Made by a program: the position numbers and the translations under genes. Positions 27,605-63,066 of a DNA stretch of 64,000 nt are shown here, piece after piece. This DNA comes from a virus. The notes beneath the pieces were generated by a model. It saw only the letters and a program-made list of their open reading frames with translations. It had not been told where the DNA came from and made no database searches. Numbering within the stretch: position 1 is the first letter of the stretch; the number at the start of each line of letters is the position of its first letter. The stretch is from positions 75,611-139,610 of the IMG/VR virus record IMGVR_UViG_3300033512_000218; one strand, 5' to 3'.

Positions 27605-27808
27605 TTATTTGTTATTTAATTTTTTTTCTTTTATTATATTGAATATTTGAGACCAAATAATTGAAATTTTATTATTTAATTCCTTTTCTTCTTTACACAT
27701 TGGTTCAGATATATCAATATCTGAATATAATTTTTTCTTTAAAGCTATGAGATTTTCAACTTCTATTGATAATTTTTGTTTTATATTTTCTAATTCTTGA
27801 TTATTCAT
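27605..27808 (-). CDS. Hypothetical protein
   Basis: 67 aa after promoter copy 7. Confidence 0.6.
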   Translation of the reverse strand: MNNQELENIKQKLSIEVENLIALKKKLYSDIDISEPMCKEEKELNNKISIIWSQIFNIIKEKKLNNK

Positions 27809-27832
27809 ATTTTAACTACTAATAATTATAGT

Positions 27833-27890
27833 ACAAAGATAAACTAAATATTTTCAAAATCAAAATTAATTTGTGTTAATAAATGTTAAA
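27833..27890 (-). promoter_or_regulatory. Repeated early promoter cassette (copy 7)
   Basis: Reverse complement of cassette. Confidence 0.85.
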
Positions 27891-27892
27891 AT

Positions 27893-27900
27893 GTATTTAT
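27893..27900 (+). promoter_or_regulatory. Putative late promoter GTATTTAT, back-to-back with early cassette
   Basis: 19 nt before ATG 27912. Confidence 0.65.
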
Positions 27901-28030
27901 ATTAAAAAACAATGGATTATATTAAAATATTCTGTAATATAAAATAAATTAAAAACAAATAAAAATAATTAAAAAAAATTTAATAATTTTAATACTTCAA
28001 CTTTTTCATATTAGTATTTATATAAAAAGA

Positions 28031-28630
28031 ATGAAATCAAGGGAAGTTAAAAAAATTTTAAATATTACACAACAAACATTACACAATTATATTATTGAAG
28101 GTAAAATTAAATATATTAAAATTAATAAATATCATTACAATTATAATGATTAAGATGTTTATAAACTAATTGGTATTAAAAAAGAAAAAAAGAATAAATT
28201 AAATGTATCTTATTCCAGAATTAGTAATAAAAGAAATGATGATTTAAAAGAACAATCTCAAAGAATATATAATTATTGTATATCAAAAGGAATTAATTTA
28301 AATTATCAATTCGAAGATATTAAAAGTGGAATGAATTTTGATAGACAAGATTTTAATAAACTAATCGAACTTATTATTAAAGGTGAAATTGAATTACTTA
28401 TCATTGAAAATAAAGATAGATTAGTTAGATTTGGATTTGAACTATTAGAAAATATTTTTAAATATTTCGGTACTAAAATAATTGTTATTAATGATTCATT
28501 ATCAAATAAAACATATGAACAAGAATTAACTGATGATTTAATATATATCATACATTATTTTAGTATGAAATCTTATTCAAATAGAAGAAAATTAAATAAA
28601 ATTAAAAAAGATTTACAAGAAACAAATTGA
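28031..28630 (+). pseudogene. tnpA: IS607 TnpA serine recombinase with premature stop
   Basis: N-terminal HTH, YSRIS catalytic motif, DIKSGMNFDR, KDRLVRFGF, EQELTDDL; TAA at 28151. Confidence 0.9.
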
Positions 28631-30216
28631 TTACGATTAAATTAAATATTATTTCTAATTCAAATCCCGATTATATAATTGAAAAACAAAAGAATTACTC
28701 TTTTGCTTTTAGAAAATTATATAAACATTTTATTTTGGACGATAAAATGTTTAATAAATTATTAATGGAAAAATATAATTTATCTGTTTATGAATTTAAT
28801 TGTTTAATAATTGATGTTCAAACTAAAATTAATCAAGTTAAAACTCAAAAGGATAAATTAGAATCAAAAATAATCTCAATAGAAAAAGATATAAAATTAT
28901 TACAAGATAATATAAAATCTATTAAAAATACAAGAAAAATATTTAAATTAAATAAAAAGTTAAGTTATTTTAACAAATTATTATCCAAAGATATTGTATT
29001 TGGAAATAAAACTATATTACAACAAATAAGTTATTTATCAAATAATAAATTATCGAATAACAATGATATATTAAAACATAAAGAAACATATAAAAATAAT
29101 AGATTATTATCTATTAATTATATTGGAAGTAAAGATGATAAAAATAGTAATAGATATTTTAATTTTGATTTTGATAATAATTTAATTATTTATAAACAAA
29201 CCAATAAAATAAAAATAGAGTTAAAATATAAAGTATCAAATAATTACAAAAAATATTTAAATAGATTACAAGAAATAAAAGACAATAAAATATTACCAAT
29301 ATCAGTTCGATTAACAAATAAATTTATATATTTAACAATAGATAATCAAAAATTAAATGGTTATGATTTTAAACAATTAGAATATAATAAAAAAGTAAAA
29401 GGAATAAAAGATAAACAAATAAGAAAAGATATACTTATTAGTTTTTATAATGAACAAAGAGAAAGAATGTTACAAAATAAATTACCTAATCGATACATAT
29501 CAATTGATTTAAATCCAAATTATATAGGATGTTGTATATTAGATAAAATATATGAAGATAATTTTAAAATAATTGATAAATTTTGTTTTGATTTAAGTAA
29601 ATTAAATATAAAATCTAATAAGAATAGTGATGATAAATTATCAAAATATTTAAACAATAAGAGAAAATATGAGATAAGCATAATTTATAAAATATTATTT
29701 AATAAAGCAAAACATTATAAAGTATCCCATTTTGTAATAGAAGAATTAAATTTCAAACAACAAAATATAAATGATAAATCAAAAGAAGTTAATAGATTAA
29801 CCAAAAACGTTTGGAACAGAACTTATCAATATAATTTAATAAATAAATATTGTTTAGAAAGAGGGATTGAATTAATAGAAGTTAATCCAGTTTATTCAAG
29901 TTTTATAGGAAATATTTTATATAATTATTTTGACCCTGTTAATTCTTCAATAGAAATATGTCGAAGAGGAATAATTAAATATATAAAAAACAGTAAATTT
30001 TACCCAGTATTAACGAGTACAATAATTGACACTATGATAAATAGATTTAAATCTATTGGAGATGTTCAATTTATTAAAGATTGTGAAAGTTGGATAGAAT
30101 TATATAAAAATACAAAATCTCTAAATTTTATATATCGAGTACAATTAGATGATGTGAATCATCAATTGTTCAGCTTAAACAATACAAAAAGTAAAGTAAA
30201 TTATATTACTTTTTAA
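28627..30216 (+). CDS. tnpB: TnpB-like RNA-guided nuclease lacking Zn finger
   Basis: RuvC-I SIDLN, RuvC-II VIEEL, VNPVYSS, RuvC-III FDPVNSSIEI; TTG start overlapping tnpA stop. Confidence 0.85.
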   Translation: MITIKLNIISNSNPDYIIEKQKNYSFAFRKLYKHFILDDKMFNKLLMEKYNLSVYEFNCLIIDVQTKINQVKTQKDKLESKIISIEKDIKLLQDNIKSIKNTRKIFKLNKKLSYFNKLLSKDIVFGNKTILQQISYLSNNKLSNNNDILKHKETYKNNRLLSINYIGSKDDKNSNRYFNFDFDNNLIIYKQTNKIKIELKYKVSNNYKKYLNRLQEIKDNKILPISVRLTNKFIYLTIDNQKLNGYDFKQLEYNKKVKGIKDKQIRKDILISFYNEQRERMLQNKLPNRYISIDLNPNYIGCCILDKIYEDNFKIIDKFCFDLSKLNIKSNKNSDDKLSKYLNNKRKYEISIIYKILFNKAKHYKVSHFVIEELNFKQQNINDKSKEVNRLTKNVWNRTYQYNLINKYCLERGIELIEVNPVYSSFIGNILYNYFDPVNSSIEICRRGIIKYIKNSKFYPVLTSTIIDTMINRFKSIGDVQFIKDCESWIELYKNTKSLNFIYRVQLDDVNHQLFSLNNTKSKVNYITF

Positions 30217-30260
30217 CCATTTTGTATTGTTTAAGTATATAATTATGATATACGAGATTT
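30050..30260 (+). ncRNA. Putative omegaRNA plus guide (5' boundary approximate)
   Basis: Stem ACAATT-A-GATGAT-GTGA-ATCATC-AATTGT (30141-30169); 16-bp stem 30174-30189/30220-30235 just inside right end. Confidence 0.65.
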
Positions 30261-30548
30261 AAGACGAAGTTTATATGATAACGATATGATAAATATAAAT
30301 AATACAAATCAATTTTTTATACCTAAACAAATAACACAAGAGATATTTAATAATGATAATAGTATTCTATTATTTAAAAATAAAATTGATGTATTATTAA
30401 AAAATCAAATTATTAATTTATATGATATTAGTTATAATGAAGTCAGTTTTAAATTGGAATATATAGTTAAAAGTAAAATTGAATGTATTGATATTTTATA
30501 TAGTTGGATAAATATAGAACAAATACCTAAACATATAATAAAAACGAT

Positions 30549-31803: not shown

Positions 31804-34380
31804 ATGGAATTTGATGATAAATTTGATGCAGATGCCTTACGAGATTATACATTAGAATTAAATGATTTAATTAAAAATGTTTCTTCACTACATAAACAAT
31901 CTTATGGAGATATTATAGATTTAGCTTCAAAATTAACAAAGGAAGCGGCTGTTAAATATGATGTTGATAAAAAGGATTCTAAATTAAGTATGGATGTTTC
32001 TAAAATTGTGGTTGAACAATTGAAAAACTTACAAGATGGAAATAAATTAGAATTACAGAAATTTAATTTACAAAAAGTTATGAAAAAATTAAATTATGAA
32101 AGTTTATCATTTGAAGAAAAAGCCAATGCTAAAATTTATCTATTACAAATGAGTGGTCTTAAAAAAATGATAGATGAAAAACTAAAAATTAATGAGAATG
32201 GAGAATCATATATTGATATATTAAAAGAACAAAATGATATACTTGATAAACAAAAAGAACAACTATTAGGAATAGGACATAACGTTGATACTTTCTTCAA
32301 AACAATGAAAGTAATGGCTCAAAATCCTAAAATAGCAGGAGGAGTATTATTAGCCGCATTAGTAGGTAAAAGTAAAGAATTATTTGAAACAATATCAGAA
32401 ACAAGAACTCAATTAGGATTAAGTGGTAAAGATAGTTTAATAATGGCTAAAAATATTACATCAGCTTCAATGCAAGGAATGTTTTTAGGTATTGGTATGA
32501 AAGAATCATCAGAAGCCGCAAGTGCTATTTACAAAGAATTTAAATCAATTAATAATGTAAATAAAGATGCAATATTACAAGTAGCAAAATTAAATAAATA
32601 TTACGGTGTATCAGCTGAAGAAGGAGCAAAACTATATAAAGTATTTTCAGAAATGCAACCTTTAACAGGTCGTTCTGCAAAAGATAGTTTTAAGTTTTAT
32701 AAAAATATAGCTGAAACAAATGGATTAAGTGTAGGTAATATGATGTCCGAAGTTGCTCAAAACACCGAATACTTTGCAAAATATAGTAAAAACGGTGGTG
32801 ATAATATAGCTAAAACAGTTGCAGTTGCAAATAAATTAGGTTTAAGTTTAGCAAATGTGGAATCAATTGCAACTAATTTATTAAATGTTGATAGTAGTAT
32901 AGAAGCAGAAATGAGTGCAAGTGTATTAACAGGTAAACAACTTAATTTTAATAAAGCAAGAGAATTAGCTTTAGCTGGTAAACATGACGAAATGATGAAA
33001 GAAATATTAAAAAATCAATTTAATATTTCTGAGTGGAATAGTTGGGATGTTATACAACGACAAAAAGTAGCTGAATCTTTAGGTTTAAGTGTTGAACAAA
33101 TGCAAAACATGATTTCCCAACAAGATAATATTAACAAACTTACAGATAAATATGGAAGTAAATTAGGAAATACAATGATTTGGGCTAATGCTTTTGGTAA
33201 GAAAATGTGGGAAAATAAAGAAACTATTTTTGCAAGTATGAATTTCTTAGCAAGTATGAAAACTGTTATGCCTGGATTAATAGGAGGAATTGGAAAATTA
33301 GTTACAGGAGCAGGTCAATGGATTATGTCATTAGTAAAAGGAATTGGAATACAAAAAGCTGTTGATGGAGCTTCAAATGTAAAATCAGGTGGTGGATTAT
33401 TAAAAAATGTTAAAAAAGGTGGTGGAGGCGGAATTTTTAAAAAAGCAACAGAAGTTCAAAAAATGTCCCCACCAACAAATAATTTAAAAGGAACAATGCA
33501 AGGTAATCCCATTGTAAATTGGATTAATAGTTGGAAAACAATGGATGTTAAAGCTCTATTAAAATTTTCTTTGGCAGTAGGAATATTACTTGTATCTATA
33601 CCTCTTTTAGCATTAGCATTAAAACAATTTTCAGATGTTCCATTTGATGCTGTATTAAAAGGAATGGGTAGTATGTTAGTTATGGCTGGTATAATGAAAA
33701 TAATAGGTAATATGAATAAAGATGTTTTAAAAGGAGCATTAGCATTAGGAATTATGAGTTTAGCTTTAATTCCTTTAGGATTTGCTTTAAAACAATTTAC
33801 AGATATAGAATGGAAAACATTAGGTATTGCAGGAGTTGCTCTATTAGGATTAACTGGTGCTTTATTTGGATTAGGTGCATTAATTAGTGGTCCAGGAGCA
33901 ATTATATTTGGTGCAGGTGTTCTTGGTTTTATAGCAATGGGAATTGCATTAACATCATTAGGAATAGGATTACAAATGGTAACAAGTCCACTATCACAAT
34001 TTGTTCCAATGATTACTCAATTAGCTACAATAAGCGGAAGTTTAGTTCAAATAGGATTTGGATTTAGTGCTATGTCAATTGGACTTATTGCTTTTACTGC
34101 ATCATTATTAGGGTTAGCTCCGTTATTGCCTGTATTGGCAAGTGTGGTAGGTTTAACTCAAAAATTAACTCCTATTCAAACATCTGAAAGTAGCAAACAA
34201 GGTTCAACTGATTTAGGTGAAAGTAAAAGTAGTAAAGAAGAAAAAATAGATTCATTATTAAATAGTATAAATCAATTAGTATCCGAATTATCAAAAGAAA
34301 AAGCTATAATTATTAATGATAGAGAAGTTGGTAGATATTTAGGTTTGAAAATGGATAGAATGAAAGTAAATGGAATATAA
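31804..34380 (+). CDS. Tape measure protein
   Basis: 858 aa helical, Ala/Gly/Leu-rich hydrophobic C-half; IEAEMSASVLTGKQLNFNKARELAL. Confidence 0.85.
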   Translation: MEFDDKFDADALRDYTLELNDLIKNVSSLHKQSYGDIIDLASKLTKEAAVKYDVDKKDSKLSMDVSKIVVEQLKNLQDGNKLELQKFNLQKVMKKLNYESLSFEEKANAKIYLLQMSGLKKMIDEKLKINENGESYIDILKEQNDILDKQKEQLLGIGHNVDTFFKTMKVMAQNPKIAGGVLLAALVGKSKELFETISETRTQLGLSGKDSLIMAKNITSASMQGMFLGIGMKESSEAASAIYKEFKSINNVNKDAILQVAKLNKYYGVSAEEGAKLYKVFSEMQPLTGRSAKDSFKFYKNIAETNGLSVGNMMSEVAQNTEYFAKYSKNGGDNIAKTVAVANKLGLSLANVESIATNLLNVDSSIEAEMSASVLTGKQLNFNKARELALAGKHDEMMKEILKNQFNISEWNSWDVIQRQKVAESLGLSVEQMQNMISQQDNINKLTDKYGSKLGNTMIWANAFGKKMWENKETIFASMNFLASMKTVMPGLIGGIGKLVTGAGQWIMSLVKGIGIQKAVDGASNVKSGGGLLKNVKKGGGGGIFKKATEVQKMSPPTNNLKGTMQGNPIVNWINSWKTMDVKALLKFSLAVGILLVSIPLLALALKQFSDVPFDAVLKGMGSMLVMAGIMKIIGNMNKDVLKGALALGIMSLALIPLGFALKQFTDIEWKTLGIAGVALLGLTGALFGLGALISGPGAIIFGAGVLGFIAMGIALTSLGIGLQMVTSPLSQFVPMITQLATISGSLVQIGFGFSAMSIGLIAFTASLLGLAPLLPVLASVVGLTQKLTPIQTSESSKQGSTDLGESKSSKEEKIDSLLNSINQLVSELSKEKAIIINDREVGRYLGLKMDRMKVNGI

Positions 34381-59714: not shown

Positions 59715-60026
59715 AATGATACAATGCAAAATATGTAGTGAATCTTTTGATAATTATAATTATTTATCATCCCATTTAAGATTTAAACATCAAATAAATT
59801 CATTTAATTATAGTTTAAAGTATAACCATAATAATATAATACCTAAATGTTCATGTGGATGCAATAACGAAACAAAATGGGTAGGTTTAAAAGAAGGATT
59901 TAATAAATTTATAAAAGGACATGCTTCCAAATTTCAGTTAAAAAAATTACCTATATATAATAATATATGTACTATATGTGGTAATGAATTTAAAACAAAT
60001 GATAAAAAAAAGAATTATTGTAGTAA

Positions 60027-61711
60027 ACAAAAAAGTATTAAATACAATTAAAATTAAGTAAAATTTCTTTATTTTATTTAATTATATTTATGATTACGAT
60101 TAAATTAAATATTATCTCCAACTCAAATCCCAATTATATAATTGAAAAACAAAAGAATTACTCTTTTGCTTTTAGAAAATTATATAAAAATTTTATTTTA
60201 GACGATAAAATATTTAATAAATATCTAATAGATAAATATAAATTATCTGTTTATGAATTTAATTGTTTAATAATTGATGTTAAAACTAAAATTAATCAAG
60301 TTAAAACTCAAAAGGATAAATTAGAATCAAAAATAATCTCAATAGAAAAAGATATAAAAGTATTACAAAATAATAAAAAATCTATTAAAAATACAAGAAA
60401 AATATTTAAACTTAATAAAAGTTTAAATTATTTTAATAAATTATTATCTAAAGATATTGTATTCGGAAATAAAAAAATATTACAACAAATAAGTTATTTA
60501 TCAAATAATAAATTATTGAATAACAATGATATAATAAGTCATAAAAAAATATATAAAAATAACAGATTATTATCTATTAATTATGTTGGAAGTAAAAACG
60601 ACCCAAATAGTAATAGATATTTTAATTTTGATTTTGATAATAATGTAATTATTTATAAACAACCTAATAAAACAAAAATAGAGTTAAAATATAAAGTATC
60701 AAATAATTACAAAAAGTATTTAAATAGATTACAAGAAATAAAAGATAATAAAATATTACCAATATCAGTTCGATTAACACATAAATTTATATATTTAACA
60801 ATAGATAATCAAAAATTAAATGGTTATGATTTTAAACAATTAGAATATAATAAAAAAGTAGAGGAAATAAAGGATAAACGGATAAGAAAAGATATATACA
60901 TTGATTTTTGTAATGAACAAAAAGAAAGAATGTTACAAAATAAATTACCTAATCGATACATGTCAATTGATTTAAATCCAAATTATATTGGATGTTGTAT
61001 ATTAGATAAAATAGATGAGGATAATTTTAACATTGTTGATAAATTCTGTTTCGATTTAAGTAAATTAAATATAAAATCTAATAAGAATAGTAATGATAAA
61101 TTATCAAAATATTTAAATAATAAAAGAAAATACGAAATAAGTATAATTTATAAAGTATTGTTTAATAAAGCAAAACACTATAAATTATCTCATTTTGTAA
61201 TGGAAGAATTAAATTTTAAACAACAAAATATAAATGATAAACCAAAAGAGTTTAACAGATTAATCAAAAACGTTTGGAATTTAAATTATCAATTTGAATT
61301 AATTAATAAATATTGTTTAGAAAGAGGGATTGAGTTAATAGAAGTCAATCCAGTTTATTCAAGTTTTATAGGAAATATTTTATATAATTATTTCGACCCA
61401 GTCAATTCAAGTATTGAGATATGTAGAAGAGGAATAATTAAATATATAAAAAACAACAAATTTTACCCAATAATAACAAGTACAATAATTGACACTATGA
61501 TAAATAGATTTCATTTAGAATCTATTGGAGATGTTCAATTTATTAAAGATTGTGAAAGTTGGATAGAATTATATAAAAATACAAAATCTCGAAATTTTAT
61601 ATATCGAGTACAATTAGATGATGTAAGTCATCAATTGTTCAGCTTAAACAATACAAAAAGTAAAGTAAATTATATTACTTTTTAACCATTTTGTATTGTT
61701 TTAGTATATAA
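60027..61711 (+). mobile_element. Non-autonomous tnpB-only derivative of the IS607 element
   Basis: Ends homologous to copy 1; excision restores NYCSK-HCWF frame. Confidence 0.85.
60090..61685 (+). CDS. tnpB: TnpB-like RNA-guided nuclease lacking Zn finger (copy 2)
   Basis: Close paralog of 28627..30216; D-E-D residues retained. Confidence 0.85.
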   Translation: MITIKLNIISNSNPNYIIEKQKNYSFAFRKLYKNFILDDKIFNKYLIDKYKLSVYEFNCLIIDVKTKINQVKTQKDKLESKIISIEKDIKVLQNNKKSIKNTRKIFKLNKSLNYFNKLLSKDIVFGNKKILQQISYLSNNKLLNNNDIISHKKIYKNNRLLSINYVGSKNDPNSNRYFNFDFDNNVIIYKQPNKTKIELKYKVSNNYKKYLNRLQEIKDNKILPISVRLTHKFIYLTIDNQKLNGYDFKQLEYNKKVEEIKDKRIRKDIYIDFCNEQKERMLQNKLPNRYMSIDLNPNYIGCCILDKIDEDNFNIVDKFCFDLSKLNIKSNKNSNDKLSKYLNNKRKYEISIIYKVLFNKAKHYKLSHFVMEELNFKQQNINDKPKEFNRLIKNVWNLNYQFELINKYCLERGIELIEVNPVYSSFIGNILYNYFDPVNSSIEICRRGIIKYIKNNKFYPIITSTIIDTMINRFHLESIGDVQFIKDCESWIELYKNTKSRNFIYRVQLDDVSHQLFSLNNTKSKVNYITF

Positions 61712-61730
61712 ACATTGTTGGTTTAAAATT
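61520..61730 (+). ncRNA. Putative omegaRNA plus guide (copy 2; 5' boundary approximate)
   Basis: Same stems as copy 1 with GTAA tetraloop and G-U variant. Confidence 0.65.
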
Positions 61731-63032
61731 CAACATAATAAAACGCATGAAATAAGAAATTGTAGGATATGTGATACAGAATTTGAGTGTAGCAAAATAA
61801 GTACAAAACAATATTGTTGCTTTAAATGTAGTAGAACTGATAAATCACTGTATGATAAAATGAAAAATACAATGATTGAACGTTATAGTACCGATAACTA
61901 TTCAAAAACAAATGAGTTTAAAAAATACATACAAAAAAATAGTTATTTTAAAACAAAAGAATTTCAAGAAAAAGCAAAACTTACCAAACAAACACGTTAT
62001 AATAATAAAAATTATAATAATCGAAAAAAATCAATAAACAGTATATTTAAATTTTATTATAATAATTTAATTGAATCAAACAGATTGAATAAATTAGTTA
62101 TTCCTTTGTTTTCATTGGATGATTATAAGGGAGTAAAAATAAAATATGATTTTAAATGTATTAAATGTGAAAATGAATTTCAATCAACTTTAAATTATGG
62201 AATTATTCCACGTTGTACTGTTTGTTTTCCTATTATAAGAAATGATTCAATAGGAGAAAATGAATTATATGAATATATTAAACACTTTTACCAAATGAAA
62301 TTATACTAAAGAATTATAATAAAATATTACCTAAAAATTCTGAATTAGATATTTATATTCCTTCATATAATATAGCGGTTGAATATAATGGATTATATTG
62401 GCATAGTATTAAGTATAAAAACAAATACTATCACTATTGGAAATATAATGAGTGTAAAAATAGAAATATTGATTTAATTCAAATATTTGAACATGAATGG
62501 TTATTTAAAAAGGATATTATAAAATCATTGATAAAATATAAACTTAATCTTATTGAAAATAGAATTTATGCAAAACATTGTTTGATTCGTACTATAAATA
62601 ATGATATATCAAAATCATTTTTAGATTTGAATAATATAAAAGGAATATTATCTGGTAAAATAAAATTAGGTTTATTTTATAATGAGGAATTGGTAGGAGT
62701 AATTTTATTTAATAGATTAAAAAATAATAATTATAAAATAATTTCATATTGTACCAAAATCAATTATTCAATTATCGGAGGGTTTAATAAATTGATAAAA
62801 TATTTTATTATTAAATATAAACCTACTTCAATTATTAGTTATATTGATAAAAGATTTTTTAATGAAAAAATACATAGTTATACTCATTTTAAATTAGTGG
62901 GGAATTATAATAAACTTAACTGCTATTATTTTAAAGGTTATGATGTTTATAATAATATACCTAAAAATACTAAAATAAACGATTTTAAACGATTTTATGA
63001 TTGTGGTGAGTATAAGTATATATTAAACATAA

Positions 63033-63066
63033 AAAAGCCCTAAGAATTAAAATTATTAGGGCTTTT
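63033..63066. terminator. Bidirectional terminator
   Basis: AAAAGCCCTAA-loop-TTAGGGCTTTT. Confidence 0.8.

Follow-up and report, generated by a model that had tools for sequence, protein, structure and literature searches.

A zinc-finger-less TnpB and a predicted guide-RNA scaffold at the right end of an IS607-type element in phage genomes

We examined a window of 64,000 nucleotides of viral DNA, the last 64 kb of the 139,610-bp IMG/VR virus record IMGVR_UViG_3300033512_000218, in which two closely similar genes for a TnpB-like protein are found. The question raised by this locus is what kind of element carries these genes, and whether the DNA around their 3' ends holds a guide RNA and its target. 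A first-pass annotation, made from the letters of the window, had described the protein as a TnpB without zinc finger, accompanied by a readable omegaRNA, target-adjacent motif (TAM) and guide. We found that this is not a new kind of system and that it would work like the TnpB/omegaRNA module of IS607 elements. Quite probably, what we describe here is the tnpB plus right-end module of an IS607-type insertion sequence (IS) that lives in phage genomes.

The two tnpB copies and the fold of their protein

Copy 1 of tnpB (P0001; 28627-30216, plus strand) encodes a protein of 529 aa without zinc finger and begins with a TTG start codon that overlaps the stop codon of an upstream tnpA gene; copy 2 (P0002; 60090-61685, plus strand) encodes 531 aa. 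The two proteins are 90% identical. At the DNA level, positions 28628-30242 match positions 60091-61711 with 92.5% identity. The match begins at the tnpB start codon and stops 26 nt past the stop codon, where both copies end in ...GTATATAA, and the flanks beyond are unrelated; the two open reading frames (ORFs) and the shared right end described in the first-pass annotation were thus confirmed by this alignment. The least diverged part between the copies is the last 122 nt. The synonymous divergence (dS) is 0.205 and the nonsynonymous divergence (dN) 0.052 (dN/dS 0.25), which, with both ORFs full, indicates that the copies are old and that purifying selection has preserved both of them intact. 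Copy 1 (27939-30242) is a full element, with a left end, a tnpA gene carrying a nonsense codon, tnpB and a right end. Copy 2 (60027-61711, the left boundary being the most likely one) is a solo element with a different left end of 63 nt, inserted in a zinc-ribbon gene.

The tnpA gene of copy 1 (28031-28630, plus strand) is of the IS607 type and combines a MerR-like helix-turn-helix (HTH) with a serine recombinase (NF033518 IS607 transposase, E 5.8e-38; Pfam Resolvase, 2.6e-14; HTH_17, 6.9e-6). It contains an in-frame TAA at codon 41 (28151-28153), where four intact relatives have Glu. This is its sole visible defect, and the catalytic motif Y-S/A-R-V/I-S is retained according to the alignment with the four intact relatives. 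Intact tnpA-tnpB pairs were found at L002, L004 and L016 (L numbers denote loci of relatives, those from viral contigs being the best 80 of 115) and in phage WX1. In copy 2, tnpA is absent.

An alignment of 41 family members showed that D294 (IDLNP), E372 (xxEELNF) and D436 (FDPxNASIEIGRRG) are invariant, so the RuvC D-E-D residues previously read in both copies are retained throughout the family. E372 lies in the canonical (V/I)xE(D/E)L strand, ~50 residues before NPxYSS, and the relocation of this Glu to a position just before the zinc finger, as in Fanzor and RIIr-type proteins, is not present. From NPxYSSFIGN to D436 there are ~10 aa, with no insertion and no Cys pair, in all 41 members, as had been noted for the two copies, and the C4 zinc finger (TNB) between RuvC-II and RuvC-III is absent from all of them. 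Since no Cys pair occurs in any of the 41, the zinc finger is missing family-wide and not only in this phage. The C-terminal extension after the third Asp, earlier put at ~80 aa, was found with ~93 aa after D436, and its motifs FYP, SW.ELF, YR..L and FS.N..KS.V..Y.F are conserved as protein. This tail of ~90 aa probably belongs to the main body of the protein. When folded alone, the C-terminal 85 aa reached a predicted local distance difference test (pLDDT) score of 67, with the last 25 residues below 50, which is too poor for a fold search.

The AlphaFold2 model of the protein, built with the family alignment as input, had a pLDDT of 87.5, and its best Foldseek matches were Cas12f, Cas12k, Cas12g and TnpB. 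With VIA-align, model residues 1-455 matched Cas12k (7n3o; Z 14.5), Cas12f (9nzs; Z 14.4) and ISDra2 TnpB (8exa; Z 12.3), with 290-330 aligned residues in the Cas12/TnpB matches, while the RuvC core (residues 288-456) matched bacterial RuvC with Z 12-13. The fold match over residues 1-455 comprises the WED/REC/RuvC architecture found in TnpB and Cas12f. Judged by its modelled fold, the protein is a TnpB-type RuvC nuclease; the sequence evidence for this is weak, and it is the predicted structure that settles the question. The Foldseek and VIA-align matches, together with the family alignment, bear out the earlier identification as a TnpB without zinc finger. Structure prediction had also been proposed as a way to see what replaces the zinc domain: it gave the TnpB/Cas12 fold, but it revealed no replacement, the tail alone being modelled with the low score given above.

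Compared to ISDra2 TnpB, Cas12f and Cas12k (8exa, 8h1j, 7n3o, 9nzs), the window TnpB has the same fold over residues 1-455 and the same RuvC D-E-D triad, but it is only 10-12% identical to them, lacks the Zn-finger/TNB insert and carries the conserved ~90-aa tail after RuvC-III. Loss of the C4 zinc finger was reported for some large TnpB branches by Altae-Tran et al. (2023; PMC10691335), and the finger is therefore a typical, not a strictly defining, feature of TnpB. The clade RIIIr-4 of that study is virus-enriched and without C4 zinc finger; in it, His replaces the RuvC-III Asp and the genes are linked to RHH/MazE genes (PMC10691335). In contrast, D436 is invariant in the window family and the partner is a serine recombinase. 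On these aligned features the family is probably another zinc-finger-less TnpB branch. The novelty claimed for the protein in the first-pass annotation was overstated, given that loss of the finger was already published (PMC10691335) and that a relative in Campylobacter phages, ISCaje4, has been named since 2010 (PMC2853527).

The predicted RNA scaffold at the right end

The last 116 nt of the element form the core of an omegaRNA-like scaffold. In copy 1 it lies at 30127-30242 (plus strand), spanning the final 90 nt of the ORF together with the 26-nt tail; in copy 2 it lies at the right end, at 61596-61711 (plus strand), and was recovered there by both a covariance model and the fold z-score. 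Folding of the last 183 nt against shuffled sequences gave z -5.05 for copy 1 and z -4.25 for copy 2. The GNRA-capped stems that had been pointed out earlier (GATGAT-GTGA-ATCATC in copy 1, GATGAT-GTAA-GTCATC in copy 2) are real hairpins, nested in a longer hairpin of 11-12 bp, but the GNRA loop is confined to the lineage of the window copies and is not conserved in relatives. The terminal stem, described before with 16 bp, has 16-17 bp (arms CTTAAACAATACAAAA and TTTTGTATTGTTTAAG).

We found a common layout in 10 relatives with quite different sequences: a hairpin A of 10-13 bp, a linker of 3-4 nt ending in AG (xxAG), a long stem B that encloses a small hairpin, and a single-stranded tail of 6-7 nt (6 nt in copy 1) that runs to the element boundary. 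The 3' end of ISCaje4 shares this fold layout (z -4.36). The covariance model was built first from three near-identical copies and then rebuilt from 11 matches. It scored 116-132 bits on copy 1 and 111-130 bits on copy 2. When 477 kb were searched on both strands at E <= 1, the model gave 33 matches, 30 of them on the plus strand at tnpB 3' ends; two others were the reverse reading of the near-palindromic stem B, and one was located elsewhere. At L038, a weak match to the RNA model (2290-2405; E 0.16) lies ~400 nt ahead of the tnpB ORF there and not near a tnpB 3' end; it could be a chance match or an orphan scaffold.

The stems are supported by covariation. With 11 sequences, 92% of the cells were paired and 21 out of 35 pairs were compensatory, with a covariation score of 0.510 (0.211 in shuffles, at most 0.157 in slid controls). 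With 22 sequences, 87.8% of the cells were paired, 28 out of the 35 pairs were compensatory and the score rose to 0.619 (0.193 +/- 0.015 in shuffles, at most 0.137 in slid controls). None of 500 shuffles matched any of the observed covariation measures. Stem B is closed by a G.U pair in every one of the 22 sequences (columns 77 and 194; window positions 30173 and 30236), with freely varying neighbours, and G.U pairs are common elsewhere in the scaffold. Frequent G.U pairs, one of them invariant, fit an RNA of the plus strand and not a DNA cruciform. The invariant pair is also a candidate protein-recognition feature of the RNA. A cmscan of 27800-30400 at E up to 10 gave no Rfam match, RAGATH-18 included (there was one chance snoRNA), and no terminator-like site was found in the same region. 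As read from this pattern, the 3' end of the tnpB transcript would form a conserved, covarying guide-RNA scaffold. The omegaRNA that had been predicted over the 3' end of the ORF is thus supported in silico by a conserved structure of the sense strand.

Element ends, candidate target motif and natural alleles

Across the family, the tail after the stop codon is 23-30 nt long and ends in GTAT(A/T)T(A/T)A, beyond which the sequences diverge. In copy 1 this tail occupies 30217-30242 (plus strand; 26 nt), and the predicted guide, TTATGATATACGAGAT, lies in the 3' flank at 30243-30258 (plus strand), starting at the first base past the inter-copy homology. The predicted guide of copy 2, ACATTGTTGGTTTAAA, is likewise the 3' flank (61712-61727, plus strand). 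The role of these flanks as guides is assigned by analogy with the TnpB paradigm.

On the left side, the flank reads TGTAA in 9 of 10 independent insertions, the exception being copy 2 with AGTAA. Among five solo relatives (L001, L032, L003, L007 and L009), homology is shared only from TTGTAA/A(T/C)(G/A)AAAA onward, the slash marking the junction. The left junctions of tnpA-bearing relatives are ATGTAA/TACAAAAATAAT (L004) and TTGTAA/TCATTATT (L002), and the junction of copy 1, CTGTAA/TATAAAATAAAT, resembles both. By this similarity, the GTAA at 27935-27938 (plus strand) would be the 5' flank of copy 1, as a candidate TAM or TnpA target, and the left end of the element would extend over 27939-28030 (plus strand); homology to the element of the L004 group begins at 28015. 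A left end near 27905, based on likeness to L001 (AAAAACAAT), was considered and dropped, as 27939 better fits L004 and L002.

For copy 2 there are two candidate GTAAs, at 60023-26 and 60058-61. The second lies beyond the stop codon of the upstream ORF, and the evidence favours the first, after which the element starts with ACAAAAAAG, resembling the start of L003 (ACAAAAAGC). Position 60027 is the most likely left boundary of copy 2, which would make GTAA part of the host sequence (target or TAM) and not of the element. The left end (60027-60089, plus strand; 63 nt, solo type, without tnpA) is not homologous to that of copy 1. GTAA does precede both insertions, as had been claimed, with the qualification that copy 2 offers these two candidates. 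Similarly, a TAM of about (T/A)GTAA agrees with the left flank of the 10 independent insertions, with TGTAA as the candidate motif. In the record of this genome, near-matches to the predicted TAM plus guide targets were restricted to the two occupied junctions, which have ATAA against GTAA and differ at TAM position -4 (A for G). If position -4 matters, this A would protect the occupied site from cutting.

Copy 2 sits in a gene whose product has a C2H2 finger and a series of CxxC...YCxxxC zinc-ribbon units. The gene's 5' part (59716-60026, plus strand) ends in AGTAA (60022-60026) and its 3' part (61712-62309, plus strand) starts with the predicted guide. Joining 60026 to 61712 (TGTAGTAA/ACATTGTTGG) gives a single ORF of 302 aa; no bases have to be duplicated for this join, which restores a CxxC...YCxxxC unit (YCSK/HC) like the next unit, YCCFKC. 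The rejoined junction, AGTAA/ACATTG, is the same string as the empty site predicted in the first-pass annotation, which had proposed a search for such sites. The restored ORF speaks for this prediction, but no natural empty allele was found for the window copies: a codon-degenerate pattern of the copy-2 empty junction had 0 matches in viral contigs and metagenome contigs, and the right-end pattern TTTTGTATTGTTTWAGTATATA had 0 matches in metagenome contigs. In phages of the L004 group, the three further records searched all carry the element at 100% identity and gave no empty allele either. No homologues of the interrupted gene were present in a set of 5.8 billion proteins, and searches with flanking genes found no relatives of the window phage, so that no intact orthologue was at hand for the copy-2 junction. 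A separate ORF lies at 62528-63043, 220 nt downstream of the interrupted gene.

Natural filled and empty alleles were found for ISCaje4, which Timms et al. (2010; PMC2853527) reported from phage CP220 as a unique insertion and which ISfinder lists in the IS200/IS605 family. Its TnpB is 33% identical to P0001 (E 4e-37) and is also without zinc finger. In common with the window elements, it has a resolvase-type tnpA upstream in the full copy (phage WX1), the same 3' RNA architecture, a right end ~23 nt after the stop and a large lytic phage as host. It differs in that its TnpB has ~465 aa and lacks the first ~150 residues of the N-terminal region of the window protein, and in its target (..TATT/) and terminus (..TCTT), against TGTAA/ and TATAA in the window elements. 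By the ISfinder 95% rule, it is a different IS.

We compared filled and empty alleles at three loci of Campylobacter phages with 93-99% identity. A 5'-truncated copy of ISCaje4 fills a site in CP220 that is empty in CPt10 (junction GTTTATT/ATATAACTAG). A full element of 2,150 bp, with tnpA and tnpB, fills WX1 at a site that is also empty in CPt10 (junction GATTTTATT(TAT)/TAGG, with the bracketed TAT present at both junctions). Finally, a solo element of 1,645 bp is present in F379 and CJLB-13 and absent from CJLB-12, whose flanks are 99% identical (junction AAATATT/TTTAAGTC). The filled/empty pairs share 2-5 ambiguous bases at the junctions. The right end, ...TATATCTT, is reached 23 nt past the stop, and the target has ...TATT at its end; the 3' end given by the covariance model falls within ~3 nt of the right end mapped in WX1 and F379, at a junction ambiguous by 2-5 bases. 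The terminus of ISCaje4 mimics its target with one base different, by the same logic as TATAA and TGTAA in the window. These alleles validate the definition of the ends and show that the family is mobile in phage populations; they do not separate transposition from homing.

Some of the elements are truncated, decayed or of the solo type. Relative to WX1 (L091 767-2916), the CP220 copy (L089 888-2603) starts in the middle of tnpA (...SGMSF/DRKDF in WX1). Its flank is intact up to the junction when compared to the empty CPt10, with an ATT microhomology, and the insertion is 5'-truncated with a perfect right end; TnpA-mediated adjacent deletion or repair-based acquisition could have produced this truncation. 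The solo elements of F379 (L092 1277-2921) and of the window (60027-61711) begin to match the tnpA-bearing form only near the tnpB start codon, and in these two distant lineages the left ends are unrelated to that form. This suggests that a module of tnpB plus right end may pass from one element backbone to another. The annotation of F379 splits tnpB into two ORFs. CJLB-14 (L093 889-1696), at the same site as CP220, retains ISCaje4 as six short blocks with several internal deletions. Little is left of its final ~150 nt, where the RNA scaffold would lie, and either decay of the copy or an error of assembly accounts for this. Another remnant, L028 3001-3377 (IMGVR_UViG_3300033512_000165), lies in a related phage and consists only of the last 376 bp of the element, 93% identical to copy 1. 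It covers TnpB residues 414-529 and the full RNA scaffold, with the same right end and a different flank, and so keeps the scaffold without a tnpB gene.

The left end of copy 1 holds a promoter-like 16-mer, TAGTATTTATATAAAA, at 28012-28027. This motif has exactly 5 exact plus-strand occurrences in the window, 3-29 nt ahead of ORF starts: the sites are 28012, 38500, 44594, 46726 and 54501, and the ORF starts 28031 (tnpA), 38529, 44628, 46770 and 54529. At up to 2 mismatches there were 11 matches, with 4.5 expected. By this recurrence, the left end of the IS looks like it carries a promoter motif of the phage itself. A promoter scan of 27800-30400 gave counts not above those of shuffles.

Proposed mechanism, alternatives and phage distribution

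As in IS607 TnpB/omegaRNA systems, the window elements have a serine recombinase with MerR-HTH followed by tnpB (in copy 1), no inverted repeats and no clear target duplication, a predicted omegaRNA from the tnpB 3' end plus the right end, and a terminus that mimics the target, so that an empty site equals TAM plus guide match. No homology between left and right ends was seen by eye, with no dedicated repeat search run. According to a review, the known IS607 elements carry GG at their ends, integrate beside a GG and use the G-rich TAMs AGGAG or GAGGG (PMC13565253). In contrast, the window elements end in AA and have the target TGTAA with an A/T core, with no GG end or insertion. ISCaje4, with ...TCTT and ...TATT, likewise lacks GG, and the mimicry logic is kept with other bases. 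Further differences from known IS607 elements are that the RNA matches no Rfam family and that the TnpB is without zinc finger.

We propose that TnpA would insert the element just 3' of TGTAA, a sequence that resembles the element's own terminus TATAA, and that the tnpB transcript would run on into the flank, which would serve as guide. An empty site (TGTAA plus guide match) would then be cut and an occupied site (TATAA plus guide) would be spared, and repair from the element-carrying copy would restore or spread the element. We infer the production and binding of the RNA, the cutting of DNA, the exact TAM and the homing step. A more specific possibility, which we hold tentatively and consider rather doubtful, is that this lineage is a phage-specialised TnpB branch that spreads mainly by RNA-guided homing between co-infecting phages, and not by TnpA transposition. 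Such homing would explain the many solo modules (copy 2, F379) in which homology to full elements sets in at the tnpB start codon, the 5'-truncated copies whose right ends are complete (L028, CP220), the phage promoter motif in the left end, and an AT-rich TAM matched to phage DNA of 20-30% GC.

Several points weigh against reading the locus as an IS607-type module with an active, RNA-guided TnpB. No Pfam TnpB model (OrfB_IS605 or OrfB_Zn_ribbon) matches the protein, TIGR01766 reaches 28.8 bits with a cut-off of 32 (E 1.3e-6, residues 343-425), and in sequence searches neither the single protein nor the 41-member profile reaches a TnpB or Cas12 of solved structure. The Zn-finger/TNB module helps to place the substrate in those TnpB and Cas12f proteins that have been characterised, so that nuclease activity in its absence is a prediction. 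With tnpA broken in copy 1 and lacking in copy 2, transposition would now depend on a TnpA provided in trans. The left boundary of copy 1 was placed solely by its likeness to relatives, and no empty site was found for either window copy. Finally, the covariation alignments were fitted to the structure of the model, so their counts are biased towards it. RNAalifold on a plain MAFFT alignment regained stem B only, because the other stems shift register, and the alignments from the covariance model were used for this reason.

The 3' structure could instead be a right-end signal for transposition, bound by the recombinase at the DNA level, or an element for stability or termination of the tnpB mRNA. 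Stem B is a near-perfect inverted repeat at the very end of the element, its reverse strand also scores weakly with the covariance model, and recombinase sites are common at IS ends. We consider this explanation unlikely, given that the frequent G.U pairs, including the one invariant in 22 sequences, pair only in RNA of the plus strand, and that hairpin A, with its strong covariation, lies 60-100 nt inside the ORF. Moreover, no U-tract follows stem B, the scan of 27800-30400 found no terminator-like site, and serine-recombinase IS607 elements are not known to require hairpins at their ends. The distance between the end of the structure and the flank is constant, as in omegaRNAs.

It is quite unlikely that the protein is an RNA-guided DNA binder, TldR-like or Cas12k-like, that regulates or blocks a locus, loss of the TNB having disabled cleavage. 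The three catalytic residues are invariant in 41 diverse members, whereas TnpB lineages reported as inactivated have changes at the catalytic site (PMC10691335). Among closely related phages the elements still move and differ in presence, and their guides are insertion flanks and not promoter regions chosen for regulation. These observations have to be set against the best structural match, Cas12k, which is a naturally non-cutting relative, and against the missing Zn-finger/TNB insert and the common occurrence of solo copies without tnpA. We also asked whether both copies could be decaying relics without present function, with a dead tnpA and with tnpB ORFs intact only through recent insertion. 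The in-frame TAA in tnpA and the truncated or decayed relatives (the L028 remnant, CJLB-14 and the split tnpB of F379) would agree with this. However, both copies keep full ORFs at a dS of 0.205, with dN/dS 0.25, and the RNA stems are maintained through compensatory change, so that we regard such decay as very improbable.

Read as the tnpB plus right-end module of an IS607-type element, the locus provides a concrete and testable prediction of omegaRNA, guide and TAM for a TnpB family that standard models miss. The family is nearly confined to large phages; among these are cultured Campylobacter phages, in which filled and empty alleles occur naturally. If the system is active, the Zn-finger/TNB module is dispensable for a TnpB, GG can be replaced by an A/T core in an IS607-type element, and the Campylobacter phages would offer a tractable system for OMEGA-nuclease homing between co-infecting phages. 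The AT-rich TAM could also interest builders of genome-editing tools.

The family is little studied, mostly phage-borne and made up of relatives of ISCaje4; our literature search found no publication characterising the RNA, TAM or activity of the window TnpB family. A word-indexed search recovered at least 498 homologues, and an exhaustive profile search gave 1,633 representatives (50% identity), of which 594 had E <= 1e-30. We take the number of 1,633 to be far below the reach of a mainstream-TnpB profile. In the scan of viral contigs, 115 relatives were confirmed, frequently with more than one in the same genome and in many cases on contigs of 100-470 kb. Only 21 relatives were detected in 185,579 species genomes, all in metagenome-assembled genomes and mostly in Bacteroidota. 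The annotated phages that carry the family are Lak megaphages of Prevotella, two huge uncultured phages and Campylobacter Firehammervirus phages, in which the members are annotated as TnpB of ISCaje4. The record that contains our window is ~60% complete (CheckV) and belongs to a large, AT-rich phage (GC content ~20%). A tape-measure-like ORF of 858 aa (31804-34380) points to a tailed phage.

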